Shown piece after piece: positions 3,084-53,815 of a stretch of 64,000 nt of DNA. The stretch lies in contig DASWBH010000037.1 in the NCBI GenBank assembly GCA_036390755.1, forward strand, positions 2,185 to 66,184, read 5' to 3'. A model generated the notes under the pieces. That model was not told where the DNA came from. It saw only the letters and a program-made list of their open reading frames with translations, and searched no databases. The translations under genes and the position numbers were made by a program. The DNA comes from Thermoanaerobaculia bacterium (GTDB lineage Bacteria > Acidobacteriota > Thermoanaerobaculia > Gp7-AA8). Each line of letters starts with the position of its first letter. Position 1 is the first letter of the stretch.

Positions 3084-3126
3084 GTTGTCGGTTGTCGGTT
3101 GCCAGTCGTTGGCAACCGTCACCCGG
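3084..3126. terminator. Heptamer-repeat hairpin between convergent genes
   Basis: GTTGTCG GTTGTCG GTTGCCA GTCG TTGGCAACC; the palindromic core is GGTTGCCA-gtcg-TTGGCAACC. Confidence 0.45.
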
Positions 3127-3129
3127 TAA

Positions 3130-3372
3130 CTACTCTCCGACGATCTCGCGCCACGGCAGTTTGCGAACTGCCATCACCTTTTCGTCGATCTCCACCTGCG
3201 TGGCCTTGTCGCCGAGCACACGACGCAGGTACTCGACTTCCGGCGAGACCAGTTTGTTGTGCTTGGGAAGGAGGCGGATCGCGGCGTTCTGGAGATTTCG
3301 TTCGGAAACGGTGATGAGCTTCGATGGTTTCTTGATCCTGATCATTTCGCTCATAGTATGACCAACCGGCAA
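3130..3372 (-). CDS. Hypothetical small protein (80 aa)
   Basis: ORF with protein-like composition lying downstream of the Zn-ribbon ORF on the same strand. No family recognised. Confidence 0.4.
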   Translation of the reverse strand: MPVGHTMSEMIRIKKPSKLITVSERNLQNAAIRLLPKHNKLVSPEVEYLRRVLGDKATQVEIDEKVMAVRKLPWREIVGE

Positions 3373-6307: not shown

Positions 6308-6351
6308 GCGAGTACTTTACACTGCAAAGTACTCGCCGACAATCGGGCCGG

Positions 6352-8343: not shown

Positions 8344-9143
8344 CCCTGAAAGCCATCGGATTCGATTTGTGGGAGACGCTCATCACCGATACACCCGAGG
8401 CATCGCGCGCGCAGGAGCGGCTGCGGATCGCGCGGATGGAATCGCTCCTCGTCGCGCGCGGCTACCGGCACGAGGCCCATCAACTCGAGCGCGCGTATCG
8501 CGTGCTGTGGCAGCGGTGTCATGACCTGTACTGGTCGGAGGACCGCGACATCCCGTGCCGCAGACAGATCGAGGTGTTCCTCGAGGAGCTCGGCGTCGCG
8601 CCTGCTGATCTCGATCCCGCCACGCTCGAGCAGCTCGAGCACGTGTACGCCAACGCCGCGGTCGAGCTGCTGCCGTCGGTCGTGCCCGGCGCGCGCGAGC
8701 TCCTTGCCGAAGTGCGCCGCCGCGGATTCGGAACGGGACTGATCAGCAACACCGGCCGCACACCGGGCTACGCGCTGCGCGAGATTCTGAAGCGCCTCGA
8801 GCTCGCTCCGATGATCGACGCGATGGTCTTCTCCAACGAACACGGCCAGTGCAAGCCGCAGCCGTCGATCTTCGAGCAGCTCCGCCGCCACCTCGGCGTC
8901 GCATACGACGAGATGCTCTTCGTCGGCGATAACCTCTACGTCGACATCCTCGGCGCGAAACGATGCGGGATGAAGGCGATCCACTTCATCCCGCCGGTAA
9001 GAGGAACGGCGGTGGCGCCGGCCGTCGAGCACGAGGAAGTCGAGCCGGATGCAGTTGTGAGCGACTTGCGGGACGTCGTCGAGGCGATCGCGAGATTCGA
9101 GACTCGAGATTCGGGATTCGAGAAAACGGGCCGCGGCAAATGA
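8340..9143 (+). CDS. HAD-superfamily hydrolase
   Basis: HAD motif I (FDLWETLITD) and motif IV-like (FVGDNLYVDILGA). Confidence 0.75.
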   Translation: MTLKAIGFDLWETLITDTPEASRAQERLRIARMESLLVARGYRHEAHQLERAYRVLWQRCHDLYWSEDRDIPCRRQIEVFLEELGVAPADLDPATLEQLEHVYANAAVELLPSVVPGARELLAEVRRRGFGTGLISNTGRTPGYALREILKRLELAPMIDAMVFSNEHGQCKPQPSIFEQLRRHLGVAYDEMLFVGDNLYVDILGAKRCGMKAIHFIPPVRGTAVAPAVEHEEVEPDAVVSDLRDVVEAIARFETRDSGFEKTGRGK

Positions 9144-9175
9144 CGAATCCCGAATCCCGAATCCCGTATCCCGAG
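9092..9175. repeat. Heptamer-built inverted repeat spanning the HAD stop / MBL start junction
   Basis: Left arm GAGATTC GAGACTC GAGATTC GGGATTC GAG; right arm (CGAATCC)x3 CGTATCC CGAG. The 13-bp perfect stem 9108-9120/9144-9156 encloses the ATG at 9140. Confidence 0.6.
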
Positions 9176-10030
9176 CCCCGCGACAAGAACTTCTTCACCC
9201 TCGCCGCCGGTCACTTCACGATCGAAGGGCGCTCGCGCGCGGGGCACGAGACGTATTTCCGCGTGCGCGAGCTCGGCATCTCGCTCGACGTCGGGCGCTG
9301 TCCCGATCTCGTCATCAACATGCCGCACGTCTTCGTCACGCACGCGCACCTCGATCACGCCCTCGGCATTCCGCATTACGCGGGACAGCGGCATCTGCAG
9401 CGGATCGAAGGTGGACGCGTGTACGTTCCGTCGGAGGCAGCGGATGACTTCCGGGCGCTGATGGCGCTTCACGAGAAGCTGGAGGACACCGGATACGGCA
9501 TCGAGATCGTGGGCGTCGCCGCGGGTGACGAGGTCCGCATCGGGCGCACGCACGTCGTCCGCGCGCATCGGGCCACCCATCGCGTCGCGGCGCGAGCGTA
9601 TGAAGTGCTCGAGATCCGGCATCATCTGAAGACGGAGTTCGAGCACGCCTCGCCGCAGGAGCTGGTTCATCTTCGCCGGCGAGGCGTTCAGGTCGCGGAC
9701 GAGTTCGCGCAGCCGATGTTGTTCTACACCGGCGACACGGACCGCGGCATTCTCGAAACGAACGAGCGGCTGTTCAAGTCAGATGTCCTGATGATCGAAT
9801 GTTCGTTCATCGAGGACGGGCATCAGGTGCGGGCGGCGAAGTACCGGCACATCCACTTCGACGACATCGCCGAATTCGCGGCGCGGTTCGAGAACCGGCT
9901 GATCGTGCTGACGCACTTCAGCCGCCGCTATTCGCGCGAGGAGATTCACGCTTCGCTCCGGCGGCGCTGTCCGCCGATTCTTCGCGAGCGGCTGCGCCTT
10001 GCGCTACCGCATCCGTTCACGACACTGTGA
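9140..10030 (+). CDS. Metallo-beta-lactamase-fold hydrolase (RNase Z-like)
   Basis: HxHxDH motif (THAHLDHALG). Start set at the ATG at 9140, which forms an ATGA overlap with the HAD stop. Confidence 0.7.
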   Translation: MTNPESRIPYPEPRDKNFFTLAAGHFTIEGRSRAGHETYFRVRELGISLDVGRCPDLVINMPHVFVTHAHLDHALGIPHYAGQRHLQRIEGGRVYVPSEAADDFRALMALHEKLEDTGYGIEIVGVAAGDEVRIGRTHVVRAHRATHRVAARAYEVLEIRHHLKTEFEHASPQELVHLRRRGVQVADEFAQPMLFYTGDTDRGILETNERLFKSDVLMIECSFIEDGHQVRAAKYRHIHFDDIAEFAARFENRLIVLTHFSRRYSREEIHASLRRRCPPILRERLRLALPHPFTTL

Positions 10031-11903: not shown

Positions 11904-13502
<1,599 letters not shown>

Positions 13503-15217: not shown

Positions 15218-15257
15218 TCCTAAGAGCTAAGAGCCAGGAGCTGAGAGCTGGTAGCTT
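15218..15257. repeat. Direct 7-nt periodic array (TAAGAGC TAAGAGC CAGGAGC TGAGAGC TGGTAGC) in a divergent promoter / 5' UTR
   Basis: AGCT recurs every 7 nt. The array lies immediately upstream of the AGGAGG RBS of the amidohydrolase gene. Confidence 0.5.
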
Positions 15258-16445: not shown

Positions 16446-19594
<3,149 letters not shown>

Positions 19595-31177: not shown

Positions 31178-31393
31178 ATGGCGGACAACAGAGTCTACAA
31201 ACTGGTCGAGCTCGTCGGCACGTCGGAGAAAGGCTTCGCCGAGGCGGTCGCGACGGGCGTCAAACGCGCGGCGAAAACGCTCCGCAACATGGACTGGTTC
31301 GAGGTCACCGAGCTGCGGGGCCGGGTCACCGGGAACAAGGTCGCGCAGTATCAGGTGAAGCTGAAGGTCGGGTTCCGGCTCGACGACGAGTAG
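31178..31393 (+). CDS. Dodecin (flavin-binding)
   Basis: 71 aa, strongly dodecin-like (VELVGTS...W(F)EV...KV.F). AAAGGAG RBS. Confidence 0.8.
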   Translation: MADNRVYKLVELVGTSEKGFAEAVATGVKRAAKTLRNMDWFEVTELRGRVTGNKVAQYQVKLKVGFRLDDE

Positions 31394-32489
31394 GCGAAGG
31401 GTTGTCGGTTATCGGTGCTGACGACCGATAACCGACAACCGACAACTCACTCCGGTTTCGCGAACTCCTTCTCGTGGTCTTCGCGTTCAATCTGATCTCG
31501 CTGTATGTCCGGGTCGCTCCGGCACGCGGATCGACCGTAACGACCTTGACGACGAACGGCAGCTTCATGCCGTCGACTTCGCGATAGTCCGAAAAGTCGG
31601 TCTGCTGCGGAATGAGACCGATGGGTGTCGGCGTCAGGCGGATGCGGCGAACGAGCAGACCGGTTTCCGCGTCGAAGTAGAGTCGCTCGCGTCCGTTCTC
31701 GCCGAATCGGGCAACCATCAGATAAGCGTCGCGATCGCCGACCTTCGTCAGCAGGTGCACGCGAGCATTGGCCGGGATGTCGTTCGGAAGCGTCGGCCGG
31801 TACGCGTTGGCGATCATCGTGGCGGTCTCGATCTGATTCGGCTCCATCGCGCGCGTGCCTTTTGCGTCGCGCACCCATCCGCTGCTGCCGTCGATGACGT
31901 TCACCATCTCGCCTTGCGGAGTCATTCCGGTTGCGCGCATCCTGCCCGGCGCGATCACGACGTCGATGGGTGTCTTTCCCTGCTGCGCCTCGCGCACGCC
32001 CTTCAGTTCCATGGTCGCGAGCGCTTTCTCGTTGAGGTTGCCCAGCGCTTTCGCATAGCGCGCGACGACTTCATCGCGCGTCGGCAGCGGCGGCTTCGGT
32101 GCGGCCTGTGCCTCCGCGGGCCGTGGCACGAGCGCGATCGGCAGCACCGGAACGCTGACGGGGTTCGGCGCACCGCGGTGGCAGGTTTCGCACGAGACCT
32201 CCGTCTGTCCTTTGAAGTACTTCACGTTCGTGTCGATGACGAGCTGCATCATCTGACGTGCAGTCTTCTTCTCGTCCTTGGCGTCGTTCGGGAGATCGAG
32301 CTCGCCGTTCGCGGCGCGCACGTGGCAGAAATCGCAAGTGACACCGAGCGAGGCGGAGATGAACTGCATCGCCCGAAACAGCTGACCGGGCGTCAGGCCC
32401 TTCAGCACCTGCACGTTTTTCAGCTCCTGCTGGCCAGCAGCAGTGGTCGCGATCAGCGCGAGTGTCACAGCAAACGTCATTCGCTTCAT
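31326..32489 (-). CDS. Diheme c-type cytochrome domain protein (3' end uncertain)
   Basis: Signal peptide; two CxxCH motifs (CDFCH, CETCH) followed by a C-terminal domain. The ORF runs through the 31400-31446 hairpin and overlaps dodecin by 68 nt; an alternative frame stops at 31447. Confidence 0.55.
   Translation of the reverse strand: MKRMTFAVTLALIATTAAGQQELKNVQVLKGLTPGQLFRAMQFISASLGVTCDFCHVRAANGELDLPNDAKDEKKTARQMMQLVIDTNVKYFKGQTEVSCETCHRGAPNPVSVPVLPIALVPRPAEAQAAPKPPLPTRDEVVARYAKALGNLNEKALATMELKGVREAQQGKTPIDVVIAPGRMRATGMTPQGEMVNVIDGSSGWVRDAKGTRAMEPNQIETATMIANAYRPTLPNDIPANARVHLLTKVGDRDAYLMVARFGENGRERLYFDAETGLLVRRIRLTPTPIGLIPQQTDFSDYREVDGMKLPFVVKVVTVDPRAGATRTYSEIRLNAKTTRRSSRNRSELSVVGYRSSAPITDNPSPTRRRAGTRPSASPDTARPCSR
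31400..31446. terminator. Perfect 16-bp heptamer-built hairpin
   Basis: GGTTGTCGGTTATCGG-tgctgacga-CCGATAACCGACAACC, plus an extra GACAAC unit. Confidence 0.6.
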
Positions 32490-38581: not shown

Positions 38582-38627
38582 TCCCACCGCATGCGCGGCG
38601 GCCGGCATCGGCCGCCGCTCTTCCCAT

Positions 38628-43160: not shown

Positions 43161-43952
43161 ATGGATCTGACACTTCACGTTTGGCGGCAGAAATCGCGAG
43201 AAGCAGCCGGCGATTTCGTGATGTACAAGGCGACCGGCATCAGCCCTGATGCTTCGTTTCTCGAATTGCTCGACGTCGTCAACGAAGGGCTGATCGAGAG
43301 CGGGCAGGAGGCGATTCACTTCGAGCACGACTGCCGCGAAGGCATCTGCGGCTCGTGCGGCATGATGATCAACGGCGTCGCGCACGGCCCGCTCGGCCGC
43401 ACGGCGACGTGTCAGTTGCACATGCGCAACTTCAAGGACGGCGACGAGATCTGGATCGAGCCGTGGCGCGCGCGCGCATTTCCGGTCATCAAGGACCTGA
43501 TCGTCGACCGCAGTCCGCTCGATCGCATCATCCAGGCCGGCGGATTCATCTCCGTGAACACCGGCGCCGCTCCGGACGCAAACGAGATCCTGATTCCGAA
43601 GACGGTGCAGGAGCTCTCGATGGACGCGGCGGCGTGCATCCAGTGCGGCGCGTGTGTGGCCCAGTGCCCGAACGGTGCGGCCCAGCTCTTCACCGCCGCG
43701 AAAGTCTCGCACCTCGGACTGCTGCCGCAGGGTCAGCCGGAGCGCTGGGACCGAGTCGTCCGCATGGTCGAAGTCATGGAGTCCATGTTCGGCAGCTGCA
43801 CGATGTTCGGCGAATGCGAAGCGGTGTGCCCGAAAGGCATCTCGCTCGATTTCATCGCGCGCATGAACCGGGATTACATCAAGGCGAGGTTCAAGGCTCC
43901 GGGGGAAACAGCGCCCGCGACCGAAGAGGGCGGCAGGCTGGCAGAGGCGTAG
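43161..43952 (+). CDS. sdhB: Succinate dehydrogenase / fumarate reductase iron-sulfur subunit
   Basis: Three Fe-S cysteine clusters: 2Fe-2[11 protein letters not shown], 4Fe-4[12 protein letters not shown], and 3Fe-4[13 protein letters not shown]. Confidence 0.9.
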
Positions 43953-44407
43953 TTGCCGGTGATCGGTTGTCCGTTGTCGCGGCGATGCATTGTGCAGCGA
44001 GCCGCGTCGACAACCGATAACCAGCCACTGTCGGCGTTTTTGGCCTCTTTCGATTCCTTTTCGAATTTCTTCACATCCTTTTCATGGTCGCTGACCATGT
44101 CCTTCATGCAGGCCTTCTCGAAGTCTTTGCCCTTCTTCGAAGCGAGCTCACTTCGGCCTTCATAACGAAGTGTTTGTCGCCGCCTGACAGGTTGCTGACG
44201 GTCCTGCCGGTAGAACCTGTAGTCGCAGGTGAAGCGGCGGTACTCGTGGTCGTTGCCCCTGAAGTGTCGGTCGCGCTCGTGGAAGTGGTCGATGTGTCGG
44301 TTGTCCCGGCCGCACCGTTGTCTTACTTTCTCGTTCGAGTTCCGGCATGCCACGGCGGCGACCACGAGTACCACGGCGATGAAGATGAAAAGACGATGAC
44401 GAAGCAT
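43874..44407 (-). CDS. Hypothetical secreted His/Arg/Lys-rich protein (3' end doubtful)
   Basis: Signal peptide and a low-complexity charged body. The ORF reads through the sdhB terminator hairpin and overlaps sdhB by 79 nt. Confidence 0.3.
43952..44040 (+). terminator. Heptamer-built imperfect hairpin plus TTTT after sdhB
   Basis: GTTGCCG GTGATCG GTTGTCC GTTGTCG ... CGACAAC CGATAAC CAGCCAC ... GGCGTTTT. Confidence 0.55.
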
Positions 44408-44439: not shown

Positions 44440-46956
44440 GTGGCGAAGGCTGCAGGAAGCAGTCCGGCGATGCCGGAAGTCCGGAAACGCCGGCGTGGGA
44501 AGCGCGGTATGATCGCGCGCTCGATTACTTCAGATAAGTTGGAGGGCGTGGTGGCGACTGCTCCTGCTGTACCGGAGCTCGACAACATCGTTGCGGAGGC
44601 GGCCCGTGCCGCCAACGTGCCGGTCGCATTCGTCGGCTTCGTCGACAAATCGGGTGAATCGATCAAGGCGGCTCGCGGCTGGAACGTCGCGACGATTCCG
44701 CCTGCCGTTTCGTTCGCGATCCGCATCGCGAACCAGTCGGACGTGGTCGTCGTTCCCGACACGACGCGCGACGTCCGTTTCTCTTCGCATCCGCTCGTGA
44801 CGGGCGCTCCGAACCTTCGCTTCTACGCCGGCGCTCCGATCTTCGACGACGGCTCGTTCGTCGGCGCGCTGTCGGTCATCGATCGAGTGCCGCGCACGCT
44901 CACACCGGAACAGACCGCGGTCCTGCGCCTGCTGGCACGGCAGATCTCGCGCGAGCTCGAAGTTCGTCGCGAGAAGGCCGAGCTCAACGAACGCTTCCGC
45001 GAGTTCTTCGAACAGACCGACGACTTCGTGATGAGCATCGGTCCCGATCTGCGGCTCATCCACTCCAACGAAACCGTCGTGGGCACCCTCGGCTACACGC
45101 GCGAGGAGCTGACTTCGCAGCCGCTGCTGCGCGTCGTCGCGCCGGAAGCGCGCGACGAGTTCCGGAGCTACTTCGCCGACGTGTTCGGCTCCGGCGAGCC
45201 GCGCACACTCGAAACCGTCTTCGTCACCTCCGGCGGCCGCCGCATCACGGTGGAAGGCTCGCTGCGGCCGCGCGTCATCGACGGCCGCACGCTCATGGTC
45301 CGCGTCATCTTCCGCGACATCACTGAGCGGAAGGAGTTCGAGTCCGAGCTCGGCAACGCGCGCGACGCCGCTCTCGAAGCGGCGCGCCTGAAGTCGCAGT
45401 TCCTGACCAACGTGAGCCACGAGATCCGCACGCCGATGAACGGCATCGTCGGCATGCTCGACCTGCTCGAGTCGACGCAGCTCAACGTCGAGCAGCTCGA
45501 TTACGCGCGCCAGGCCCACGCCAGCGCGGATCAGCTGCTGTCGATCGTCAACAACGTGCTTTACGTGTCGAACGTCGAAGCTGGCGGCATGGGGTCGCAG
45601 AACGTCGACTTCGATCTGTACAAGACCCTCCAGCGCGTCGTCGAAGTCATGAAGATCGCCGCCCTCGGCAAGGAAGTCGAGGTCGAGTTCTTCTACGACC
45701 AGCAGTTGCCGCCGGTGCTGCGCGGCAACCAGAGCAAACTGCGCCAGGTCATCACGAACCTGATGGACAACGCCATCAAGTTCACCGAAGAGGGGAAGGT
45801 CATGCTGCGCGTCACGCAGCAGACCGAGACCGACACGCACCGCGTGATTCGTTTCGAGATTCACGACACCGGCATCGGCATCTCCGAAGAGGACCGTCTG
45901 CTGCTGTTCGAGAAGTTCTCGCAGATCGACGGGTCGCAGTCGCGGCGTTTCCAGGGCACGGGACTCGGCCTGGCGACGGCGCGGCAGCTCGTCGAGACGC
46001 TGGGCGGTTTGATCGACGTCGACAGCAAGCCGGGCGTCGGCTCGACCTTCTGGTTCACCATTCCGTTCGCGAAGCACGCGCAGGGCCGCAAGCCGATCGC
46101 GTCGTCCGAGCTCGACTTCAAAGGCAAGCGCGCGCTGCTCGTCGATCACGTTCCGACGAGCCGCAAGATCGTGCACCACTACCTCGACGGCACGTGGGGC
46201 ATGCGCGTCGACGTCGCCGAGAGTGCGACGAACGCGCTGGGGATGCTGCGCCAGGCGGAGACCGATCCCTATCGCGTGGTGATCTTCGATGCGATGCCCG
46301 ACATCGATGCGTTTTCGTTTGCGCGCGAAGTCCACGCCGACGCGCGCATCGCGAACACGAGCCTCATCCACCTCGTGGCGACGAACAACGACGTCAATCG
46401 CGAGAAGATGCGCGAAGCCGGCATCAATGCCTACGTCGTCAAGCCGGTCGGGCAGAGCGAGCTGTTCGACGCCATGACGGTTGCGCTCGCGCACGACGCG
46501 CTGTCGATGGCTACGCCTGTTTCACAGCCGTCCAGTCCACAACCCGCCAGACCGGCCGACGTCTCCCCGGATATGCGCAAGCGCGTGCGCGTGCTTCTGG
46601 CCGAGGACAATTTCCTGAACGCGAAGCTGACGATGAGCCAGCTGCACAAACTCGGCTATGAGGCGGATTCCGTTCCGAACGGCAAGGAAGCCGTCGAGGC
46701 GATCGCGAAGAACGACTACCAGATCATCCTCATGGATTGTCAGATGCCGGTGCTCGATGGCTATCAGGCCACGATCGAGATCCGCCGTCTCGATCGCGAG
46801 CGCGGCGCCAGGCGGCGCATCATCGCCATGACTGCGAACGCGCTCGAAGGCGATCGTGAGAAGTGCCTGGCAGCAGGCATGGACGATTACCTCGCCAAGC
46901 CGACGAAGCACGACGATCTGGAGTCGGCACTGGCGAAGTACTTCTCCGTCGGGTAA
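44440..46956 (+). CDS. Hybrid sensor histidine kinase (GAF-PAS-HisKA-HATPase-REC-REC)
   Basis: H-box (NVSHEIRTPMNGI), N/G1/G2 boxes, and two receiver domains (LLVDH..., VLLAEDN...DCQMP). An alternative ATG lies at 44509. Confidence 0.85.
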   Translation: MAKAAGSSPAMPEVRKRRRGKRGMIARSITSDKLEGVVATAPAVPELDNIVAEAARAANVPVAFVGFVDKSGESIKAARGWNVATIPPAVSFAIRIANQSDVVVVPDTTRDVRFSSHPLVTGAPNLRFYAGAPIFDDGSFVGALSVIDRVPRTLTPEQTAVLRLLARQISRELEVRREKAELNERFREFFEQTDDFVMSIGPDLRLIHSNETVVGTLGYTREELTSQPLLRVVAPEARDEFRSYFADVFGSGEPRTLETVFVTSGGRRITVEGSLRPRVIDGRTLMVRVIFRDITERKEFESELGNARDAALEAARLKSQFLTNVSHEIRTPMNGIVGMLDLLESTQLNVEQLDYARQAHASADQLLSIVNNVLYVSNVEAGGMGSQNVDFDLYKTLQRVVEVMKIAALGKEVEVEFFYDQQLPPVLRGNQSKLRQVITNLMDNAIKFTEEGKVMLRVTQQTETDTHRVIRFEIHDTGIGISEEDRLLLFEKFSQIDGSQSRRFQGTGLGLATARQLVETLGGLIDVDSKPGVGSTFWFTIPFAKHAQGRKPIASSELDFKGKRALLVDHVPTSRKIVHHYLDGTWGMRVDVAESATNALGMLRQAETDPYRVVIFDAMPDIDAFSFAREVHADARIANTSLIHLVATNNDVNREKMREAGINAYVVKPVGQSELFDAMTVALAHDALSMATPVSQPSSPQPARPADVSPDMRKRVRVLLAEDNFLNAKLTMSQLHKLGYEADSVPNGKEAVEAIAKNDYQIILMDCQMPVLDGYQATIEIRRLDRERGARRRIIAMTANALEGDREKCLAAGMDDYLAKPTKHDDLESALAKYFSVG

Positions 46957-47008
46957 CAGGTAACAGGTAACAAAGCGGCAGGAACGTTACCGGTTACCTG
47001 TTACCTCA
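46952..47008. terminator. (GGTAACA)x3 hairpin between convergent genes
   Basis: GGTAACAGGTAACAGGTAAC-aaagcggcaggaac-GTTACCGGTTACCTGTTACC; 19 of 20 bp pair. Confidence 0.6.
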
Positions 47009-48170
47009 AGAGCTCCTGCAACGCACGGGCAAGCTGCTCGTACTCGTGTTCCTGGTTGTACACCTGCGCCGAGACCCTCAGAACCCGATGGGGCGCGTTC
47101 GGCCACGGCGCGATGGGCACTTCGATTTTGAATCGCTCGAGCAGCTCGTCCTGCAACGCGTCGCCGTAGAGACTCGGCGCCTCCGACGCGTTTCCGTCCG
47201 GCAGAGGAACGGCGGCCATCGAGCCGAGCATCTCGTCCGGCGCCGGCTTCCCGATTCCGAGCACGCCGATGAGGATGTCGCGCGCGCGAAGTGCCAGCGC
47301 GTGATTGCGGCGCATGATCTCCGGCCAGCCGCCATCGACGAGAGTCGGCAGGAACCGGATCGCCTCGGGGATCGCGAGCCACGCCGTCGGATCGAACGTG
47401 CCGGGCCAGTCGAATTCGAGGTGATACCGGCTGCGATCGGTGCGCATCGAGTTCGCGCCGTGGCTGATGACGAGCGGCCGCACGCTCGCGCGCCGGTTTT
47501 CACGCACGTAAAGAAACGCGGCGCCCTTCGGCGCGCAGACCCACTTGTGCAGGTTGCCCGTGTAGTACGCCGACCCGATCGCGCGCACGTTCAGCGGAAG
47601 CATGCCCGCGACGTGCGCGCCGTCGATCAGCGTGTCGATTCCCCTCGCGGTCATCTCCGCGACCAGCCGCTCGACAGGATTGATCAGCGCGGTCGGGCTG
47701 GTGACGTGATCGACGAGAAGCAGCCGCGTGCGATCGGTGACCCGATCGAGGATGCGCGAGACGACTTCGTCCGATGAGGAAATCGGGAACGGCACGTCGA
47801 CGACGATGACTTTCGCGCCGGCAAGTTGCGCGACATAGTCGAGCGCGTTGCGGCAGGCGTTGTACTCCTGATCGGTGACGAGCAGCTCATCGTGCTTGTC
47901 GAGGTCGAGTGACCGCAGCACCGCGTTGGCGCCCGACGTCGCATTGGGCACGAACGCCAGACCGGCAGGGTCGGCGCCGATGAAATCCGCCAGAACGTCG
48001 CGCCCCTGATCGAGCAGGCCCTCGAGCTCGCGAACCATGAAGCGCACCGGCTCGGCTTCGAGGCGCGCGCGAAACTCGTCCTGCTTGCGCAACACGGGAA
48101 TCGGAGTCGCACCAAACGAGCCGTGGTTGAGAAAGATGATGTCGCGCTCAAGCAGCCAGTGTTCCTTCAT
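47001..48170 (-). CDS. Class V aminotransferase-fold PLP enzyme (cysteine desulfurase / isopenicillin-N-epimerase-like)
   Basis: Class V fold motifs (LNHGSFG..., PLP lysine region). ATGA overlap with the upstream gene. Confidence 0.75.
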   Translation of the reverse strand: MKEHWLLERDIIFLNHGSFGATPIPVLRKQDEFRARLEAEPVRFMVRELEGLLDQGRDVLADFIGADPAGLAFVPNATSGANAVLRSLDLDKHDELLVTDQEYNACRNALDYVAQLAGAKVIVVDVPFPISSSDEVVSRILDRVTDRTRLLLVDHVTSPTALINPVERLVAEMTARGIDTLIDGAHVAGMLPLNVRAIGSAYYTGNLHKWVCAPKGAAFLYVRENRRASVRPLVISHGANSMRTDRSRYHLEFDWPGTFDPTAWLAIPEAIRFLPTLVDGGWPEIMRRNHALALRARDILIGVLGIGKPAPDEMLGSMAAVPLPDGNASEAPSLYGDALQDELLERFKIEVPIAPWPNAPHRVLRVSAQVYNQEHEYEQLARALQELLR

Positions 48171-49270
48171 CCTTCGTCCTTCATCCTTTCGAGCCCCGCT
48201 CGAAAGATGTCCGGCTCGGTCAGCAGTGACACCACGACGTACCCCTCACGGTCGAAATCAAAGAACCATCCGGGCTGGACGACCACGCCGCGGCGAAGCA
48301 GGACGAGCGCGATGTCTTCATCCGTGCGCGGCATGCGCAGGACCGCCGACCACCCACCCTCGACTGGCAGCGCGGTGACCGACGGCGGCAGCGATGCATG
48401 TAACACGTCGAGGTTGCGGAGCGTTCGCTCGCGGATGGCGTTGCGGATCGTCGCGCCGATGCGCAGCAGATCGGGAAGCGCCTGCTGCACCGGTGTGCTC
48501 ACCGAGAGGAAGTTGTCTGCGATGAGCTCGAGCGCCGCGATCGCGCGATCGCGTCCCGGACCGGTGATCCGAAGCCATCCGAGCTTGTAGTGCGGCAGCC
48601 CCGCTGATTTCGACAGCCCGCCGAGAGTGAACGTCAGAACGTCATCGTGGACGAACGACGTGTGCTCGCCCTCGAGCGCGTAGTCGAAAAAAACTTCGTC
48701 GGAGATGATCGGAACGCCGATTGCGGCGAGCGCGTCCTTCTCGTCCGCGCGGACATAGGAGCCGGTCGGATTGTTCGGATTCACGACGACAATCGCCTTC
48801 GTCTGTGGCGTCATCGCTTCGCGCACTCGCTCCGCGTGCAGCTCCCACCGGCGATGAAACTCGAGCGGGAAGGTGCGCAGCTCGAGGAGCTCGAGCGCGG
48901 CGAGATGTTCCAGCAGCGGATACGACGGCGTCGTGGTCAGAACTGCGTCGCCGGGATCGCCGAGCAGCTTGAACAGAAACGAATACGTCTCACTTGTCGA
49001 CGCCGTGATCATCACCCCGGATGCATCGCACCGGAGCTCGCGCGCGACGGCCTCGCGCGCCTTCGCGATGCCGAGGGGCTGCGGGTCGTAGGGGTATCGA
49101 GAGGCGCGTGACATGGCGTCCGCGAGCTCGTCGACAGGGTAGGGGAGGGATACCTGCGTCGGATTCGAGACGGTGAGATCGAGGAGTTTCTCGCCGCGGC
49201 GGGTGCGCTCTTCGCGCTCGACGGTGAACCGGTTGAGGGCGGCGTTCCAGTTGCCGCGGCGCGAGAACAT
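48167..49270 (-). CDS. Class I/II PLP-dependent aminotransferase
   Basis: Class I/II aminotransferase signatures (NPNNPTG, SKSAGLPHYKLGW). Confidence 0.8.
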   Translation of the reverse strand: MFSRRGNWNAALNRFTVEREERTRRGEKLLDLTVSNPTQVSLPYPVDELADAMSRASRYPYDPQPLGIAKAREAVARELRCDASGVMITASTSETYSFLFKLLGDPGDAVLTTTPSYPLLEHLAALELLELRTFPLEFHRRWELHAERVREAMTPQTKAIVVVNPNNPTGSYVRADEKDALAAIGVPIISDEVFFDYALEGEHTSFVHDDVLTFTLGGLSKSAGLPHYKLGWLRITGPGRDRAIAALELIADNFLSVSTPVQQALPDLLRIGATIRNAIRERTLRNLDVLHASLPPSVTALPVEGGWSAVLRMPRTDEDIALVLLRRGVVVQPGWFFDFDREGYVVVSLLTEPDIFRAGLERMKDEG

Positions 49271-49286: not shown

Positions 49287-50420
49287 TCACGACCGGCAGC
49301 GCTGCCGTGCGTCGGTCATCGCTTTCGCCATGTCGTCGCGATCGCCGCCACGCGTCGAGGGAACGTGTTTGATTGCGCGCTCCCACGTCTGCAGCGCGTC
49401 GCCGCATGCGCCTCGCGCGAGCTGGATCCGGGCGAGCGTATCGAGCCGCATCCACTCGTCCGGCGCGGGAGCTTCGACGGCGCGATGCGCGAGCTGCTCC
49501 GCCTCGTCGAGCCGCTGTTCCTGATACAGCAGCCAGGCCAGGTTGTTCAGCGCGTCGGCTGACGTCCCGTCGATTGCGAGCGCTTTGCGGAACGACTCCT
49601 CGGCCTGTTTCCTGTCTCCGAGCTGCATCTCCGCGTTGCCGAGGTCCGTCCAGGCGAGGACGGAGTCGGGGTGATCCGTGAGGATCTGGCGGTATGCGGC
49701 GGCAGCGTCGGCGTACTTGCCGGCATCCTCGAGCGCGACCGCCGCGCGCAGCGCATCAGCTGCCGGATCTTTCGGCGCGATGACGATCTGGGCGTGACCG
49801 CCGCCCTCCCATGCGCTCTCGAGCCGGTCGAGGTGAATCCACCGCACTTTGCGATCGCCGAACTGGACGCGCACGAGCTGCGCGGCCGTGTCGATGCCGT
49901 CGAGGACGATGTAGTGGAAGAAGTCATAGCTCTTGCCCGGCGCCTGAATGACCTGGAGCATCAGGATGACGGGACGGCCGTCGAGGAGCTCGCGCTCGAC
50001 GGTCGCGCGCGTGCCGGTGACGAGCCGCGCGTCGAAGCCCTTCTGACGCGCAGCGAGCACGAGGTCGATCGAGAGCACCCCGCCGCGCGTCTTCGGAAGA
50101 CTGCGGTCCCACTCGTCCATCGAAGTCGTGTCGCCGTAGTGCTGCAACACGGCGGAGAGCGAGCCGGCGCCGCACGATTCGATGTCCCACTTCTGCAGCG
50201 GAACGTCGGGGATGACTTTCGCCGATGCCGATGGGTGATGCGACATCGGCGTCCAGTAGACGCAGGAAAAAGTCAGAAGGCAGAAGGTCGCAGTCAGAAG
50301 TGAGAACGCGAATCGCCGCACGGCCACGATTCTACGATCCACTTCTGCCTTTTGCCTTCTGCCTTCACACTTCAGAACGGGCGGACCCGGAGATCCACCC
50401 ATCCGTTCATCGGGTGACAA
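49287..50420 (-). CDS. Papain-like C39-type peptidase domain fused to TPR repeats (start uncertain)
   Basis: IESCGAGSLSAVLQHYG matches the C39 catalytic Cys region; C-terminal TPR repeats. Alternative starts: GTG near 50327 (gives a signal peptide) or ATG at 50246. Confidence 0.6.
   Translation of the reverse strand: MSPDERMGGSPGPPVLKCEGRRQKAEVDRRIVAVRRFAFSLLTATFCLLTFSCVYWTPMSHHPSASAKVIPDVPLQKWDIESCGAGSLSAVLQHYGDTTSMDEWDRSLPKTRGGVLSIDLVLAARQKGFDARLVTGTRATVERELLDGRPVILMLQVIQAPGKSYDFFHYIVLDGIDTAAQLVRVQFGDRKVRWIHLDRLESAWEGGGHAQIVIAPKDPAADALRAAVALEDAGKYADAAAAYRQILTDHPDSVLAWTDLGNAEMQLGDRKQAEESFRKALAIDGTSADALNNLAWLLYQEQRLDEAEQLAHRAVEAPAPDEWMRLDTLARIQLARGACGDALQTWERAIKHVPSTRGGDRDDMAKAMTDARQRCRS
50272..50368. 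repeat. Heptamer-built inverted repeat (CAGAAGG units) at the 5' end of the C39-TPR gene
   Basis: GTCAGAAGG CAGAAGG TCGCAGT CAGAAGT ... ACTTCTG CCTTTTG CCTTCTG CCTTCAC. Confidence 0.5.
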
Positions 50421-50769
50421 TGACGAGGATCAGAGCGGCCAGCGCGCCGATGCCGATCCAGATCCACTGCTGCTGTGTGAGTCCCGCAGCCTGGAGCTGA
50501 TTCAGGTTCTGCGCGAGCTGGTGAAGGTCCTGCGGCGACATCTGCGCGACCTTCTGGTTGACCTGCTCCTGCGTGAAGCCCTGGCCGGCCAGCGCGGTGG
50601 CGACCTGCTCGTTCGCAACGACATCGCGGACGAGCGCCAGATCGGCGGCGCGGGAGTCGAGGCTCTGATTGGCGGCGGTCTTCGACGGCGTCGCTACGGC
50701 GAACGCCGGGACCGCAGCCACGACACAGAGCAAGGTGAGAGCGACAACGATGGATTTCGACGAACGCAT
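50407..50769 (-). CDS. Small secreted LTXXQ-motif (Spy/CpxP-like) protein with C-terminal TM anchor, paralog 1
   Basis: Signal peptide, GFTQEQV and GLTQQQW motifs, C-terminal WIWIGIGALAALILVIV. GGAGG RBS. Confidence 0.55.
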   Translation of the reverse strand: MRSSKSIVVALTLLCVVAAVPAFAVATPSKTAANQSLDSRAADLALVRDVVANEQVATALAGQGFTQEQVNQKVAQMSPQDLHQLAQNLNQLQAAGLTQQQWIWIGIGALAALILVIVTR

Positions 50770-50824: not shown

Positions 50825-51190
50825 TTACTGCGTGAGTGCGACGATCAGAATCAGCGCAGCGAGAGCGCCGATGCCGACCCAGATCCATTCCTGTCGAGTG
50901 AGGCCGGCGGCCTGAAGCTGGTCGAGGTTCTGCGCGAGCTGGTGAAGGTCCTGCGGCGACATCTGCGCCAGCTTCTGGTTCACCTGCTGCTGATCGAACC
51001 CGTGCGCCGCGAGGACGGCCGCCACCTGTTCGGTGCCGGCGATGTCGCGCACCAGGGCCAGATCGGCGTCGCGCGAAGCGAGGCTCTGATTCGGCGCCGT
51101 CTTCGAAGGTGCCGGGCCGGCGAACGCAGGAATCGCAGCGAAGACGAAGACCAGGGCGAGAACGAAGAGAACCTGTTTCTGGGAGCGCAT
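50825..51190 (-). CDS. Small secreted LTXXQ-motif protein with C-terminal TM anchor, paralog 2
   Basis: About 60% identical to its neighbour. AAGGAGG RBS 8 nt upstream of the ATG at 51190. Confidence 0.6.
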   Translation of the reverse strand: MRSQKQVLFVLALVFVFAAIPAFAGPAPSKTAPNQSLASRDADLALVRDIAGTEQVAAVLAAHGFDQQQVNQKLAQMSPQDLHQLAQNLDQLQAAGLTRQEWIWVGIGALAALILIVALTQ

Positions 51191-51371
51191 GGACAAAGTA
51201 CAACCTCCTTCATTGCATTCAGTCCCGCCGGTCACGGCCGCGATGCGGTCGCCGGCGACGGCTTCAGCAAGCGCAGTCAGCAAGTTGGGTGCCCGTGGGC
51301 GGAAGGATGGAGCCTGAAGGAATGCCCAAAACGGAAATTGGTACGATGAACGTCCGTTAACACAAACGCCC

Positions 51372-53549
51372 ATGATCCGCTTTGAAGACATCCTCGATCG
51401 CGTCGAGAGCTATAAGCCGGACTTCGACGAGGAGCTGCTGCAGAAGGCCTACATCTTCTCGGCGCGCGAGCACCGCGATCAGGTCCGCAGCTCCGGTGAG
51501 CCTTACCTCGTCCACCCGCTCAACGTCGCGTACATCCTGGCCGACATGCACCTCGACGAGACGTCGATCGCCGTCGGGCTGCTGCACGACGTGCTCGAAG
51601 ACACGCTGACCACGAAGGAGAAACTGGAGGAGATCTTCGGCGAAGACGTCGCCGATCTCGTCGACGGCGTGACGAAGATCTCCCGCTACGCATACGTGTC
51701 GAAGGAGGAGCAGCAGGCCGAGACGTTCCGGAAGATGCTTCTGGCGATGGTCTCCGACCTGCGCGTCGTGCTGGTCAAGCTCGCCGACCGCCTCCACAAC
51801 ATGCGCACGCTGCAGTACCTCCCGGAAGAGCGCCGCATCGCCATCGCCAAAGAGACGATGGAAATCTACGCGCCCATCGCCAACCGCCTCGGCATGGGCC
51901 GCATCAAGCACGAGCTCGAAGACCTCTCGTTCCATCACCTTCATCCGCGTGAGTCGGAAGAGCTGCGGAAAGCGGTCGCGGAGAAGATGGCCGTGTCGGG
52001 CGATGTCGTCGATCGCATCAAGGCCACGCTCGCGGACAAGCTGAACGAAAACGAGATCGGGGGCGAGGTCACCGGCCGCGTGAAGTCGATGTTCTCGATC
52101 TGGACGAAGATGCAGCGCCAGGAGATCGACATCGGCCAGCTGTACGACTATCTGGCCTTCCGCATCATCACCAGCAGCGTGAAGGACTGCTACGCCTGTC
52201 TCGGCATCATCCATCAGATGTGGCGCCCGGTTCCCGGCCGCATCAAGGACTACATCGCGATGCCGAAGCCGAACTTCTATCAGTCGCTGCACACCACGGT
52301 CGTGGCCGAGCGCGGACAACCGTTCGAAGTGCAGATCCGCACGAAGGAGATGGACCTCGTCGCGGAGCAGGGCATCGCCGCGCACTGGAAGTACAAGGAA
52401 GGACGCGTCGGCGCGTCACACGACGACGCGAACTTCCTCTGGCTGCGGCAGCTTGTCGAGTGGCAGCACGACATCAAGGATCCGCGAGTCTTCATGAACT
52501 CGCTGAAGATCGACCTCTATCCGGACGAGGTCTACACGTTTACGCCGAAGGGCGACGTGTTCGCATTTCCGCGCGGAGCGACACCGCTCGACTTCGCGTA
52601 CCGCATTCACACCGACGTCGGCCACCGCTGCATGGGTGCGCGCGTGAACGGCAAGCTCGTTCCGCTGCGCACGCCGCTGAAGAACGGCGACATCGTGGAG
52701 ATCACGACCGGCACATCGCAGACACCCAGCCGCGAGTGGGTGAACATGGTCGTCACCTCGCGCGCCCGGCACAAGATCCGTCACTGGCTGAACCTCGAGC
52801 AGAAGAACCGTTCCATCGAGCTCGGCCGGAAACTCGTGGAGAAGGAAGCGAAGAAATACAAGGTGCAGTGGCGCAAGCTCGTCGCGGAGAACGCGCTCGA
52901 CGGCGTGCTGCACGAGTACGGGCTGTCACGGCTCGACGATCTGTACGCGGACGTCGGTTACGGCAAGCTTTCGGCGCGTTCGCTCGTCGAGCGTTTCACG
53001 AGCGACGAGCAGAAGGAGAAGGGGCCGACCGATCAGGGGGTCATCGAGGCCGCGGTCCGGAAGATCTTCCCGTTCACCTCATCGCCCGGCGCGATCAAGG
53101 TCAAGGGCTACGATGACTTGATGACTTACCTCGCCAAGTGCTGTAAGCCGCTGCCCGGCGAAAAGATCCTCGGCTACGTCACGCGCGGGAAGGGCGTGGC
53201 GGTCCACAGCGCGAACTGCCCCAACGTCAAGAACCTGATGTTCAACCCCGATCGTGAGATCGCCGTGGAGTGGGCGGACCAGCGCGTCTCGTCGAACTTC
53301 AACGTCGAGCTGGAGATCCTGAGCGAGGATCGGCAGGGGATTCTTGCGCGCGTCGTGTCGACGATCGCGAACCTGAAGACGAACATCCGCCAGATGGAGA
53401 CGCGGACCGGAGACGGCAAGGCGACGACCGAGCTCGTGCTGGAGATCGCCGACCTCAAGCACCTGGAGAAGGTGACGAGATCGCTGTCGAATGTCGACGG
53501 GGTGATGAGAGTCGACCGGAAGTACAACATCCGGCACGCCACGGCGTAG
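51372..53549 (+). CDS. rel: Bifunctional (p)ppGpp synthetase/hydrolase
   Basis: HD hydrolase domain, synthetase domain, TGS and ACT domains. 725 aa. Confidence 0.9.
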   Translation: MIRFEDILDRVESYKPDFDEELLQKAYIFSAREHRDQVRSSGEPYLVHPLNVAYILADMHLDETSIAVGLLHDVLEDTLTTKEKLEEIFGEDVADLVDGVTKISRYAYVSKEEQQAETFRKMLLAMVSDLRVVLVKLADRLHNMRTLQYLPEERRIAIAKETMEIYAPIANRLGMGRIKHELEDLSFHHLHPRESEELRKAVAEKMAVSGDVVDRIKATLADKLNENEIGGEVTGRVKSMFSIWTKMQRQEIDIGQLYDYLAFRIITSSVKDCYACLGIIHQMWRPVPGRIKDYIAMPKPNFYQSLHTTVVAERGQPFEVQIRTKEMDLVAEQGIAAHWKYKEGRVGASHDDANFLWLRQLVEWQHDIKDPRVFMNSLKIDLYPDEVYTFTPKGDVFAFPRGATPLDFAYRIHTDVGHRCMGARVNGKLVPLRTPLKNGDIVEITTGTSQTPSREWVNMVVTSRARHKIRHWLNLEQKNRSIELGRKLVEKEAKKYKVQWRKLVAENALDGVLHEYGLSRLDDLYADVGYGKLSARSLVERFTSDEQKEKGPTDQGVIEAAVRKIFPFTSSPGAIKVKGYDDLMTYLAKCCKPLPGEKILGYVTRGKGVAVHSANCPNVKNLMFNPDREIAVEWADQRVSSNFNVELEILSEDRQGILARVVSTIANLKTNIRQMETRTGDGKATTELVLEIADLKHLEKVTRSLSNVDGVMRVDRKYNIRHATA

Positions 53550-53550
53550 A

Positions 53551-53620
53551 AAAGAGCGCAGTGGGCGGAGCGCGGATCAGCCCCTCCTGCGCTCCGCGCT
53601 CTGCCCTCCGCGCTCTGTTC
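53551..53620. terminator. Bidirectional terminator between rel and rpmB
   Basis: Nested GC-rich stems (GAGCGCAG/CTGCGCTC, GGAGCGCGG/CCGCGCTC). On the rpmB side they are followed by TCTTTT. Confidence 0.6.
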
Positions 53621-53815
53621 TTACCGGGCCGCTTTCTGAATTTTGCCGGTACGGATGCAGCGGGTGCAGACGTTCATCCGCTTCACGGCTGCGCCGACTT
53701 TCACGCGGACGCGCTGCAGGTTCGGGTTCCAGCGCCGGCTGGAAACGTTATGAGCATGGCTCACTTTGTTTCCGAATACCGGTGCCTTGCCGCAGACTTC
53801 GCAGGTCTTTGCCAT
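53621..53815 (-). CDS. rpmB: 50S ribosomal protein L28
   Basis: [10 protein letters not shown]...RRWNPNLQ; 64 aa. Confidence 0.9.

Follow-up and report, generated by a model that had tools for sequence, protein, structure and literature searches.

The window analysed here, a 64,000-nt (64-kb) stretch of DNA from a soil bacterium of an uncultured Thermoanaerobaculia lineage, harbours many arrays with a period of 7 nt. These arrays are probably intergenic heptanucleotide microsatellites, mostly organised as two inverted arrays that together form one long imperfect palindrome. Heptamer-array repeats of this class are abundant across the Thermoanaerobaculia. As such repeats have previously been described in Xanthomonas and cyanobacteria, the arrays are a further example of this kind and not a new class of terminators. 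The majority of the copies are probably near-neutral or REP-like, and some may have been co-opted.

Heptamer arrays in the 64-kb window

TRF and our own detector together identified 11 heptamer loci in the window, whose arms comprise 3.0-4.7 copies each. All eight loci that an earlier note on this DNA had listed were recovered at their positions and with their units, and its estimate of at least eight was exceeded by three (15220-15249, 48163-48188 and 53548-53621). Eight of the 11 loci are hairpins with inverted-paired arms, and those at 5193, 15220 and 48163 are single-arm arrays. RNA folding, which the note had proposed as a check, showed that all eight hairpins are unusually stable (z-scores of about −3.5 to −8).

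The hairpin at 31400-31446 is composed of GGTTGTCGGTTATCGGT, a 7-nt loop, ACCGATAACCGACAACC and an extra CGACAAC unit. Its stem had been described as perfect with 16 bp; the pairing of 31400-31416 with 31424-31440 is indeed perfect and comprises 17 bp, and the third CGACAAC unit extends to 31446. The predicted RNA fold reaches −31.7 kcal/mol on the plus strand (z −7.2) and −31.0 on the minus strand (z −8.1). The hairpin starts 6 nt past the stop codon of a dodecin gene (31391-31393), and its right edge adjoins the TGA (31447-31449) of a minus-strand gene. The metagenome contig L001, which is 98% identical to the window, carries it unchanged. An exact-protein lookup for orthologues of this locus returned only one 1-kb, 98%-identical contig. 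When metagenomes were scanned with the gene neighbouring the hairpin, 10 loci were found, of which one was close (72%) and stops 41 nt past the gene, at an apparent array start. As this hairpin could not be followed from species to species, the relA region was used for the clade comparison instead.

Three further hairpins lie in the first 10 kb. At 1124-1197, the units GTTAGTG GCTGGTG ACTGGTT GCTAGTC face GACTAGC AACTAAC AACCAGC AACCAAC across an 8-nt loop (33-nt arms, 79% complementary; fold −39.4, z −7.7), starting right after the TGA (1121-1123) of a Rieske oxygenase gene and ending 20 nt ahead of a PAS-GGDEF-EAL gene. The hairpin at 3083-3131 pairs GTTGTCG GTTGTCG GTTGCCA with TGGCAAC CGTCACC CGGTAAC (22-nt arms, 82% complementary, loop of 5; fold −28.7, z −5.5). 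Its right edge overlaps the TAG (3130-3132) of a minus-strand ORF (3130-3354) that is convergent with the gene at 1218-2996. At 9088-9183, 4.3 copies of CGAGATT (9091-9120) are combined with 4.3 copies of CGAATCC (9144-9173), the latter reading (GGGATTC)n on the minus strand; the 36-nt arms are 78% complementary and the fold is −40.6 on the plus and −57.6 on the minus strand. The Pfam match of a HAD hydrolase ends at residue 245 of 267, so that the tail of this ORF enters the left arm, and the TGA at 9141-9143 is located within the loop.

The remaining hairpins are found beyond 43 kb. On the plus strand at 43951-44040, GTTGCCG GTGATCG GTTGTCC GTTGTCG is followed by a 37-nt loop, CGACAAC CGATAAC CAGCCAC and a TTTTT run at 44036-44040, which makes this hairpin terminator-like on that strand (21-nt arms, 86% complementary; fold −43.7, z −4.0); its left edge is the final base of the TAG of an Fe-S subunit gene (43221-43952). 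At 46952-47006, three copies of GGTAACA pair with GTTACCG GTTACCT GTTACCT (20-nt arms, 95% complementary, loop of 14; fold −31.0, z −6.7), and both convergent stop codons are inside the hairpin, namely the TAA at 46954-46956 of a hybrid histidine kinase gene and the minus-strand TAA at 47001-47003 of a class-V aminotransferase gene. The minus-strand hairpin at 50267-50372 is built from CAGAAGG and CTTCTGC units with 33-nt arms (79% complementary, loop of 37; fold −58.8 with z −5.4 on the minus and −50.0 on the plus strand). It is followed by TTTTT on the minus strand (plus-strand A-run at 50267-50271) and lies 34 nt downstream of the stop codon of a minus-strand DUF6627 gene (50407-50769); L017 and L042 carry the same unit at the corresponding position. 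Finally, AGAGCGC AGTGGGC GGAGCGC and GCTCCGC GCTCTGC CCTCCGC GCTCT form the hairpin at 53548-53621 (29-nt arms, 86% complementary, loop of 16; fold −51.5, z −6.8; TRF period 7 and 14), which fills the 71-nt gap between the stop codon of relA (53547-53549) and that of the minus-strand rpmB encoding L28 (53621-53623).

Among the single-arm arrays, the one at 5193-5220 (GTTGCTG GTTGCCG GTTGTCG GTGGTCG; 4.0 copies, 86% identity) begins at the G of the TAG of an ankyrin-repeat gene (4546-5193) and encodes the last 11 codons of a minus-strand FAD-binding ORF (5186-6292). The array at 15220-15249 (4.3 copies of CTAAGAG; TRF period 7, 78% matches) is located not at a gene end but in the 52-nt divergent spacer between an amidohydrolase gene (minus) and a SpoU methylase gene (plus). 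The minus-strand array at 48163-48188 carries 3.7 copies of TCCTTCA as read on the plus strand, or GAAGGAT on the minus strand, and covers the ATGA stop/start overlap of two aminotransferase genes. Read on the minus strand, its unit contains a Shine-Dalgarno-like AAGGA, the ATG of 47001-48170 (MKEH...) and the TGA of 48167-49270. The array is thus built from the gene's own Shine-Dalgarno-ATG sequence, which points to a local origin of the unit. In the orthologues L016, L029 and L057, the same junction harbours TCATCCN arrays or a full hairpin.

A GGTTG(Y)CG core had been proposed for five loci. It was found at 3083, 5193, 31400 and 43951; the unit at 46952 (GTTACCG) is a relative of it, and those at 1124 (GTTAGTG and GCTGGTG) are only loosely related. 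Overall, GTTNNCG matches occur 30 times in the window, at five to six loci, compared to 13.4 ± 3.8 expected. At least six unrelated units are present within the 64 kb. The units are diverse and mostly lack GGG, and only 9144-9173 on the minus strand, (GGGATTC)4, is of the G-quadruplex type. We also considered that the units could supply stop codons in three frames. This holds for GGTAACA, CTAAGAG and TGAAGGA; the units GTTGTCG, CGAGATT and CAGAAGG, however, are free of stop codons, which led us to reject the idea as a general explanation.

Excess over chance and the period of seven

To be counted in the window, a period-7 array needed at least three copies and 80% identity. Eight such arrays were observed, compared to a mean of 0.13 in 30 dinucleotide shuffles, and the array detector found none with periods of 8-12 in the window. 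When the window was scanned by structure alone, nine long ungapped inverted repeats were obtained. The lag-7 self-match of the arms was at least 0.6 in six of these and 0.57 in a seventh, and at the remaining lags between 4 and 10 none of the nine showed periodicity. The 40 shuffles gave 3.5 inverted repeats on average, with lag-7 ones at a mean of 0.20 and a maximum of 1. The shuffled controls, another check named in the note, thus leave both the lag-7 inverted repeats and the period-7 arrays far above chance, and the architecture and the period are non-random.

The survey was extended to 57 Thermoanaerobaculia relA loci (905 kb), which together with the window make up 58 sequences and 969 kb. 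The 57 loci contain 94 arrays of period 7, 12 of period 8 and 9 of period 9. Across the 58 sequences, 86 of the 102 period-7 arrays are intergenic, while intergenic DNA accounts for 11% of the sequence; intergenic arrays of other periods are few (11 of period 8, 4 of period 5, 2 of period 6 and 4 of period 9). Within 93 kb of intergenic DNA, an excess is already seen for short exact tandem duplications: for k = 7 there were 102 with 2-3 copies, 19 with 3-4 and 16 with at least 4, compared to 5.6, 0 and 0 in shuffles. This corresponds to 18-fold over shuffles, compared to 15 versus 1.6 for k = 8 and 42 versus 21.9 for k = 6. The density of arrays is about 0.8 per kb of intergenic DNA.

At least 57 of the 102 period-7 arrays have an inverted partner within 150 nt, and the arrays make up about half of the long intergenic hairpins. 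Among the long intergenic hairpins (119 in total), periodicity at lag 7 was seen in 37%, at lag 8 in 8% and at lag 9 in 4%; lags 3-6 and 10 were not represented. An assembly artefact was ruled out, as L007, L052 and L060, independent assemblies whose contigs range from 0.5 to 5 Mb, show the same features and the hairpin at 31400 is kept in the 98%-identical contig.

Position relative to genes and the relA region

Each of the eight window hairpins has a stop codon within 0-35 nt, and those at 3083, 31400, 46952 and 53548 either take up the interval separating convergent stop codons or overlap a stop codon. The elements had been placed mostly at the stop codons of convergent gene pairs; the adjacency to stop codons was borne out, but only about half of the pairs are convergent, the others being co-directional. 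The adjacency extends to the whole clade, where hairpin edges have a median distance of 4 nt to stop codons (n = 33) and 78 nt to start codons.

In many genomes, long hairpins are found at the same three positions around relA, which could mean that structure is selected there rather than merely tolerated. About 60% of the genomes with a spacer downstream of relA harbour a strong hairpin in it, with unrelated sequences. Moreover, 21 relatives carry a periodic hairpin in the spacer that separates a sigma-54-type promoter from the region of the relA promoter, the two being arranged back to back. That these upstream hairpins are binding sites for a sigma-54 activator was rejected, because their sequence differs from genome to genome.

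Unit turnover at orthologous sites

Alignment of orthologous sites, also suggested in the note, revealed that unit sequences change while the 7-nt period is kept, even at one and the same site. An example is the position downstream of relA, where the window and L002 carry AGAGCGC units, L060 carries GTTGTCG and L003 carries TAGTCCT. The left arm of this hairpin has three units in the window and four in L002. Larger differences were found between L040 and L047, which have the loop and flanks in common but carry 4 and about 10 units in one arm, and between L032 and L044 (3.6 and 13.6 units with conserved flanks, the latter being the highest copy number in the relatives). Such differences in copy number with the same loop and flanks indicate slippage, in line with the description of the elements as slippage-expanded.

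Units are mostly specific for their locus. Among same-genome arrays, 47 of 51 pairs differ at two or more of the 7 positions, and non-adjacent pairs within one mismatch amount to 7.8% compared to 3.0% in the null. Within a hairpin, variant units tend to be mirrored: the arm complementarity score was 19.5 as observed and 15.7 with permuted units, and the observed order was above the permuted mean in 33 of 39 hairpins, a test that favours well-paired hairpins, since detection picks out just these. The arms frequently retain mismatches at variable unit positions, and the data do not demonstrate the structure selection that had been proposed.

Origin of the arrays and alternative explanations

Under the microsatellite reading, replication slippage creates the arrays and alters their length in 7-nt steps. 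Direct support comes from the copy-number differences among relatives described above and from the period-7-specific excess that is visible from two copies on. The palindrome would then evolve as a single unit in which the arms remain complementary, possibly because one arm templates the other (quasipalindrome correction) or because it arose by inverted duplication; the mirrored variants are consistent with this, though arm lengths may differ widely. Arrays expand into spacer DNA, and the observed distribution, in which they halt at stop codons and about 70-80 nt off start codons, would reflect constraint on all but dispensable sequence. In a transcribed 3′ UTR, hairpins of −29 to −59 kcal/mol would be expected to impede 3′ exonucleases, and where a U-run follows the stem (43951, 50270 on the minus strand and 53548) transcription termination is probable too, by analogy with REP elements and intrinsic terminators. 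Slippage alone leaves two observations unexplained, namely the step of 7 nt and the recurrence of GTTGYCG-type units at many sites.

The position after stop codons would also be expected if the hairpins were terminators without U-tracts, often bidirectional, or protectors of 3′ ends, with selection keeping the structure and slippage merely lengthening the stems. Besides the stop-codon distances in the window and the clade and the four hairpins at convergent or overlapped stops, the low z-scores, the T-runs after three of the eight window stems and the unrelated but strong hairpins downstream of relA argue for such a role. However, at least 5 T within 10 nt after the stem were found in 12% of the periodic hairpins (n = 33), compared to a background of 4.8%, and the sense strand (−55.4 kcal/mol) folds as stably as the antisense strand (−56.2), being better in 8 of 15 cases. 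Both of these tests of an RNA-level role, by T-tract and by G-U asymmetry, were negative. Furthermore, no termination is needed between the back-to-back promoters upstream of relA, where 21 periodic hairpins are located, single-arm arrays occur in 5′ regions (15220 and 48163), variable positions often stay mismatched, and the window has ordinary short GC-rich terminators with T-rich tails (38594-38625 and 62390-62425). A consensus terminator scan gave 18 matches compared to 13.7 expected, but is uninformative here, as its loop limit misses the hairpins studied. Rfam returned no family for the whole window at the gathering threshold, nor for 51100-51420 at E-values up to 10. We consider a general role of this type unlikely, and the suggestion that the elements are expanded terminators was not upheld. 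That they mostly lack a U-tract, show no sense/antisense asymmetry and in many relatives lie between the back-to-back promoters ahead of relA speaks against a dedicated terminator class, even if those at 43951, 50270 and 53548 resemble terminators.

We regard it as quite unlikely that the elements are long palindromes kept at fixed intergenic sites in which only structure and 7-nt register matter, rebuilt repeatedly from differing units by a dedicated process and acting as U-tract-independent transcript-end or insulator elements. The sites would be those immediately past stop codons and next to the relA promoter, and the process would combine template switching from arm to arm with a slippage step of about 7 nt that is set by the replisome or a binding protein. 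If this were true, they would constitute a class of elements selected for structure whose sequence turns over rapidly, and would offer a natural system to address why 7-nt repeats dominate in prokaryotes.

Spread as REPIN- or MITE-like mobile palindromes, by a REP-associated tyrosine transposase (RAYT) or another enzyme, with arms that are heptamer arrays by coincidence and slippage only modifying inserted copies, could account for the recurrent units. Hairpins of the GTTNNCG type are found not only at five to six loci in the window but also at non-orthologous sites in L060, L023, L014, L042 and L037, with a common inner arm end, GTGGTCTG, which points to some dispersal or a sequence preference. 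In addition, unrelated hairpins occur at one orthologous site in different genomes, and the window and L002 differ by presence or absence of a hairpin upstream of relA. The non-periodic long hairpins of the relatives are clearly dispersed: those at 13124 and 18631 in L042 are one element of about 125 nt in opposite orientations, and a 12-mer was common to 8 of 71 same-genome, non-orthologous pairs of non-periodic hairpins compared to 0.66% of control segments. For the periodic arrays, mobility is distinctly improbable, given that units are unrelated in most same-genome comparisons and that relatives, in the pairs compared, differ by gains of whole units within conserved loci. A REP-type search for over-represented extragenic 10-12-mers in the 64-kb window yielded only GC-rich coding words and no k-mer family, and a Pfam scan of about 65 window proteins detected no transposase and no Y1 domain of the RAYT type. 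Nor did we see the hallmarks of MITEs: loops are unrelated between loci, no core is conserved, and the hairpins consist of the arrays themselves, with no separate terminal inverted repeats and no flanking target-site duplications. The label REP-like fits the architecture of extragenic inverted doublets that form hairpins, but, judged from 64 kb of the genome, hardly the notion of a high-copy conserved family, with units that are mostly locus-specific.

Given that the period is sharply 7 even in single arms, and that CspB binds heptamer repeats with one protein per heptamer (PMC4679880), the arrays could be platforms for a protein of the cold-shock-domain type that reads single strands in a register of about 7 nt. 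They could also be phase-variable switches at gene ends or at translational coupling, as the arrays at 5193, 9088, 46952 and 48163 run into ORF ends or a stop/start junction, and gaining or losing 7 nt there would alter the reading frame. We consider both highly improbable: the units are too diverse for one sequence-specific binder, and in most arrays pairing into a duplex would hide the single strands. Array length does not differ in the sole near-identical pair (window and L001), and the neighbouring genes are housekeeping genes, with no enrichment of surface or contingency genes.

Comparison with known repeats

Periodic 7-nt stems had been taken as no known terminator class; as far as repeats are concerned, the idea that they are unknown is wrong. 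In Xanthomonas, GGGAATC heptamer repeats occur singly or as inverted pairs (Rehm et al. 2015, PMC4692102), with 70 and 75 inverted pairs among 186 and 183 arrays (PMC4692102). Like the arrays in the window, they are intergenic tandem repeats of mostly about four 7-nt units in a genome of about 65% GC, and most form nearby inverted pairs with the potential to adopt stem-loops or cruciforms; related species differ in array length but mostly agree in whether an array is single or paired (PMC4692102). The (GGGATTC)n array at 9144-9173 on the minus strand has nearly the same unit. In contrast to the essentially single, G-rich and quadruplex-capable unit of Xanthomonas, the window contains at least six unrelated units mostly without a G-tract. 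The phylum also differs (Acidobacteriota), and array edges adjoin stop codons in Thermoanaerobaculia, unlike in Xanthomonas.

Heptanucleotide repeats are the most abundant long SSR class in many prokaryotes, and polymerase slippage was proposed as their cause, according to papers that cite Mrazek 2007 (PMC4679880, PMC4692102). As here, period 7 dominated the long, mostly non-coding tandem repeats in this survey by Mrazek, Guo and Shah; in the accounts of the citing papers, neither the paired-hairpin architecture nor this clade is described (PMC4679880, PMC4692102). The STRR (GGGGAYT) repeats of Calothrix and Nostoc and the TAACTGA repeats of Beggiatoaceae likewise consist of tandem heptamers in intergenic DNA, with several different units in each genome and arrays of 2 to over 40 copies, some of which lie just upstream of start codons as at 48163 and 15220 (PMC4679880). 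However, few paired repeats form inverted repeats in Nostoc (PMC4692102), and one indirect repeat was reported in 170 sets in Beggiatoaceae (PMC4679880), whereas more than half of the Thermoanaerobaculia arrays are inverted pairs.

REPINs are doublets of REP elements that form hairpins (Bertels and Rainey 2011, PMC3116915). They share with the arrays the scattered, extragenic inverted doublets with a spacer and long hairpins in single-stranded DNA or mRNA, but belong to a few high-copy conserved families linked to RAYTs (PMC3116915), as opposed to mostly locus-specific units, microsatellite arms and a window in which no RAYT was seen. The non-periodic hairpins of the relatives do behave like REPINs. 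With intrinsic terminators, the arrays have in common a stable stem-loop right after a stop codon and, at three window hairpins, the T-runs. The periodic stems are much longer (17-36 nt arms), mostly lack a U-tract, show no strand asymmetry, are not GC-rich (about 59% GC compared to 65% in non-periodic hairpins) and are also found where no terminator is needed.

These data extend a poorly understood class, intergenic heptanucleotide arrays and their inverted pairs, at high density to the Acidobacteriota. Because it offers many units per genome and orthologous sites that can be compared across dozens of assemblies, the clade is a good natural data set to separate mutational causes (7-nt slippage and arm complementarity) from selective ones (transcript ends). 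The arrays also enter ORF ends, where they change predicted C-termini and stop codons, and lie near the ends of metagenome contigs, so that both gene calling and assembly are affected in this widespread soil lineage.

Heptamer hairpins in the window

The window is bacterial chromosome with a GC content of 64% and carries housekeeping genes (ligA, hrcA-grpE-dnaK-dnaJ, IMP dehydrogenase, fabF/acpP, succinate dehydrogenase, pilMNOPQ, rpmB and relA), with no transposase among its genes. Gene calls came from a codon-bias model that had been trained on the clade's long ORFs, with exact stops and approximate starts. The eight loci listed in the earlier note, built from tandem 7-nt units, are all present as described. 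In the flagged hairpin (31400-31446), 17 bp pair without a mismatch around a loop of 7 nt (folding energy -31.7 kcal/mol, z = -7.2), and the remaining window hairpins fold with z from -3.5 to -8. In addition, we found a hairpin (53548-53621) that takes up the entire space from the relA stop codon to that of rpmB, and two single-arm arrays (15220-15249 and 48163-48188).

Period-7 repeats are in excess in the window. Eight period-7 arrays were found compared to 0.13 in dinucleotide shuffles, and none with periods of 8-12. In the comparison of lag-7 inverted repeats with shuffled sequence that the earlier note had proposed, six of the nine long inverted repeats have lag-7-periodic arms and no arm has a lag of 4-6 or 8-10; the shuffled window gave 3.5 inverted repeats, of which 0.20 were lag-7.

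Abundance in related genomes

Proteins with 76-93% identity to the window RelA/SpoT protein (51372-53549) are encoded in over 50 genome assemblies under the labels Thermoanaerobaculia or Acidobacteriota. From these genomes we took 57 relA loci (905 kb) as the clade sample; 23 more distant loci served as the outgroup. Period-7 arrays occur at 10.4 per 100 kb in the 57 relatives (period 8: 1.3; period 9: 1.0) and at 2.6 in the outgroup. In the relatives and the window together, 86 of 102 arrays are intergenic, where intergenic DNA makes up 11% of the sequence, and for at least 57 of the 102 a partner in inverted orientation lies no more than 150 nt away. Among 119 long intergenic hairpins found by structure, the arms were periodic with lag 7 in 37%, with lag 8 in 8%, with lag 9 in 4% and with lags 3-6 or 10 in none; the period of 7 is therefore dominant, but not exclusive. 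Exact intergenic tandem duplications with k=7 numbered 102 versus 5.6 in shuffled sequence, and the 7-nt bias is present already at two copies. Upstream of relA, hairpins of 8-nt units (GTCTCAAA) or 9-nt units (TCCTATNNG) replace the 7-nt ones in some relatives (loci L026, ~9845-9920; L019, ~9790-9920; L031, ~9880-9950), so that the periodic-arm architecture is not strictly bound to 7.

An assembly artefact is unlikely, because the same features recur in assemblies whose contigs measure 0.5 to 5 Mb and the flagged hairpin is unaltered in a 98%-identical metagenome contig. At the true contig ends of short-read assembled genomes, heptamer arrays lie at most a few hundred bases away in roughly 8-9 of ~55 cases counted by eye (relatives' loci L005, 1-100; L014, 14-106; L009, 123-143; L015, 210-231; L022, 300-330; L030, 207-242; L034, 126-156; and the end of L082), which suggests that the arrays break assemblies.

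Evolution at orthologous sites

Directly 3′ of the relA stop codon, the window and the relative's locus L002 both carry AGAGCGC-type units, with 3 and 4 units in the left arm, respectively. At this site GTTGTCG units are found in L060 and TAGTCCT units in L003, and other genomes have unrelated non-periodic hairpins or no hairpin. The loci L040 and L047 have a common loop and flanks, with left arms of 4 and ~10 units, and L032 and L044 have 3.6 and 13.6 units; both differences are of the slippage type. Where two aminotransferase genes meet, the window array (GAAGGAT, coding strand) consists of the gene's own Shine-Dalgarno-ATG sequence, and in orthologues this junction holds the array's complement or a complete hairpin, which suggests that units may be seeded locally. 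Variant units tend to be mirrored between arms (complementarity score 19.5 versus 15.7 after permutation), although the two arms sometimes differ greatly in length and the unit's variable position frequently carries a mismatch.

In the region upstream of relA (51191-51371 in the window, 150-386 in L002), L002 carries a GTTGCCG-type hairpin, whereas the window has only 38 nt with a GAAGGA repeat, degenerate and of lag 14. The hairpin is thus present in one and absent from the other of two genomes with RelA proteins of 93% identity.

Terminators or dispersed elements

The hairpins lie close to gene ends: in the clade, the median distance from the hairpin edge to the adjacent stop codon is 4 nt (52% within 6 nt) compared to 78 nt for start codons, and every window hairpin has a stop codon 0-35 nt away, several overlapping stop codons or the final codons of an ORF. 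Three window hairpins look terminator-like, namely 43951 (TTTTT), 50270 on the minus strand, where it folds better and has its TTTTT, and 53548. The evidence for canonical termination is nevertheless weak, since at least five T within 10 nt past the stem follow only 12% of periodic hairpins (background 4.8%), the sense and antisense strands fold with equal stability, and the window has ordinary non-periodic terminator-like hairpins in addition to the heptamer ones (38594-38625, 62390-62425 and 6308-6336; short GC-rich stems, T-rich tails in two of three). Furthermore, the periodic hairpin upstream of relA in 21 relatives is flanked by a conserved, oppositely facing sigma-54-type -24/-12 element and a -10-like box before relA, and such a spacer is no terminator position.

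The units of one genome are mostly unrelated, and no REP-type k-mer family was found in the window. Units of the GTTNNCG type are nevertheless present at 5-6 loci of the window and, in several relatives, at non-orthologous sites with the inner arm end in common. The relatives' non-periodic long hairpins are clearly dispersed elements. Some are REPIN- or MITE-like, because L042 holds the same ~125-nt palindromic, non-periodic element twice (13124-13255 and 18631-18755), with 5.5 kb between the two copies, which face opposite ways and whose arms are identical over at least 33 nt. Likewise, GGAGGACAGGCACTCYTGCCTGTCC is found both downstream of relA in L021 and upstream of relA in L052. Given these hairpins and the scattered GTTNNCG-type units, a REP-like component appears to exist in the clade, and it may overlap with the heptamer hairpins. 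Of the earlier reading as slippage-expanded terminators or REP-like elements, slippage expansion and the REP-like architecture are supported, but the terminator class is not.

Relation to known heptamer repeats

As PMC4679880 and PMC4692102 relate of Mrazek 2007, the heptanucleotide class outnumbers all others among the long simple sequence repeats of many prokaryotes, and the hypothesis given is polymerase slippage. Xanthomonas has 186 and 183 GGGAATC arrays, with 70 and 75 inverted pairs as potential stem-loops, and their length varies between species (PMC4692102); related arrays occur in Cyanobacteria and Beggiatoaceae (PMC4679880). Our literature search returned no report from Acidobacteria or Thermoanaerobaculia, and the hairpins are therefore a new case of an already known kind of repeat. 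They stand out in that many unit sequences occur per genome, the arrays often pair into hairpins and the hairpins tightly abut stop codons.

Further observations in the window

A conserved sigma-54-type promoter, GGCAC-N5-TTGC (51262-51283, minus-strand sense; reverse complement of ...AGCAAGTTGGGTGCC...), faces two paralogous small signal-peptide genes, 50825..51190, which has no Pfam match, and 50407..50769, which matches DUF6627. At 16 orthologous loci, its AGCA...GCC core shows no or almost no variation. The -10-like box of relA (TACGAT / TATACT) lies ~20 nt before the ATG.

Relative to the 98%-identical contig, one base is absent at ~31476 in ORF 31326..32489 (minus, cytochrome-c domain), owing to a genuine frameshift or to an error in the sequence. 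As a result, the ORF skips its natural TGA (31447-31449), runs through the flagged hairpin and shares 68 nt with the dodecin gene. The lipoprotein-like ORF 43874-44407 (minus) matches DUF4142 only at positions 76-116 of the 138-position profile, and its frame then directly enters the hairpin 43951-44029; it resembles a gene that has decayed or been truncated, with the array in place of its 3′ end.

At 9088-9183, the minus strand folds far more stably (-57.6 kcal/mol) than the plus strand (-40.6 kcal/mol), and both neighbouring genes lie on the plus strand nonetheless. The left-arm unit GAGATTC and the complement of the right-arm unit, GGGATTC, differ by a consistent A/G change, which allows G-U pairs on the minus strand only. 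With four GGG tracts on this strand, a quadruplex is possible there.
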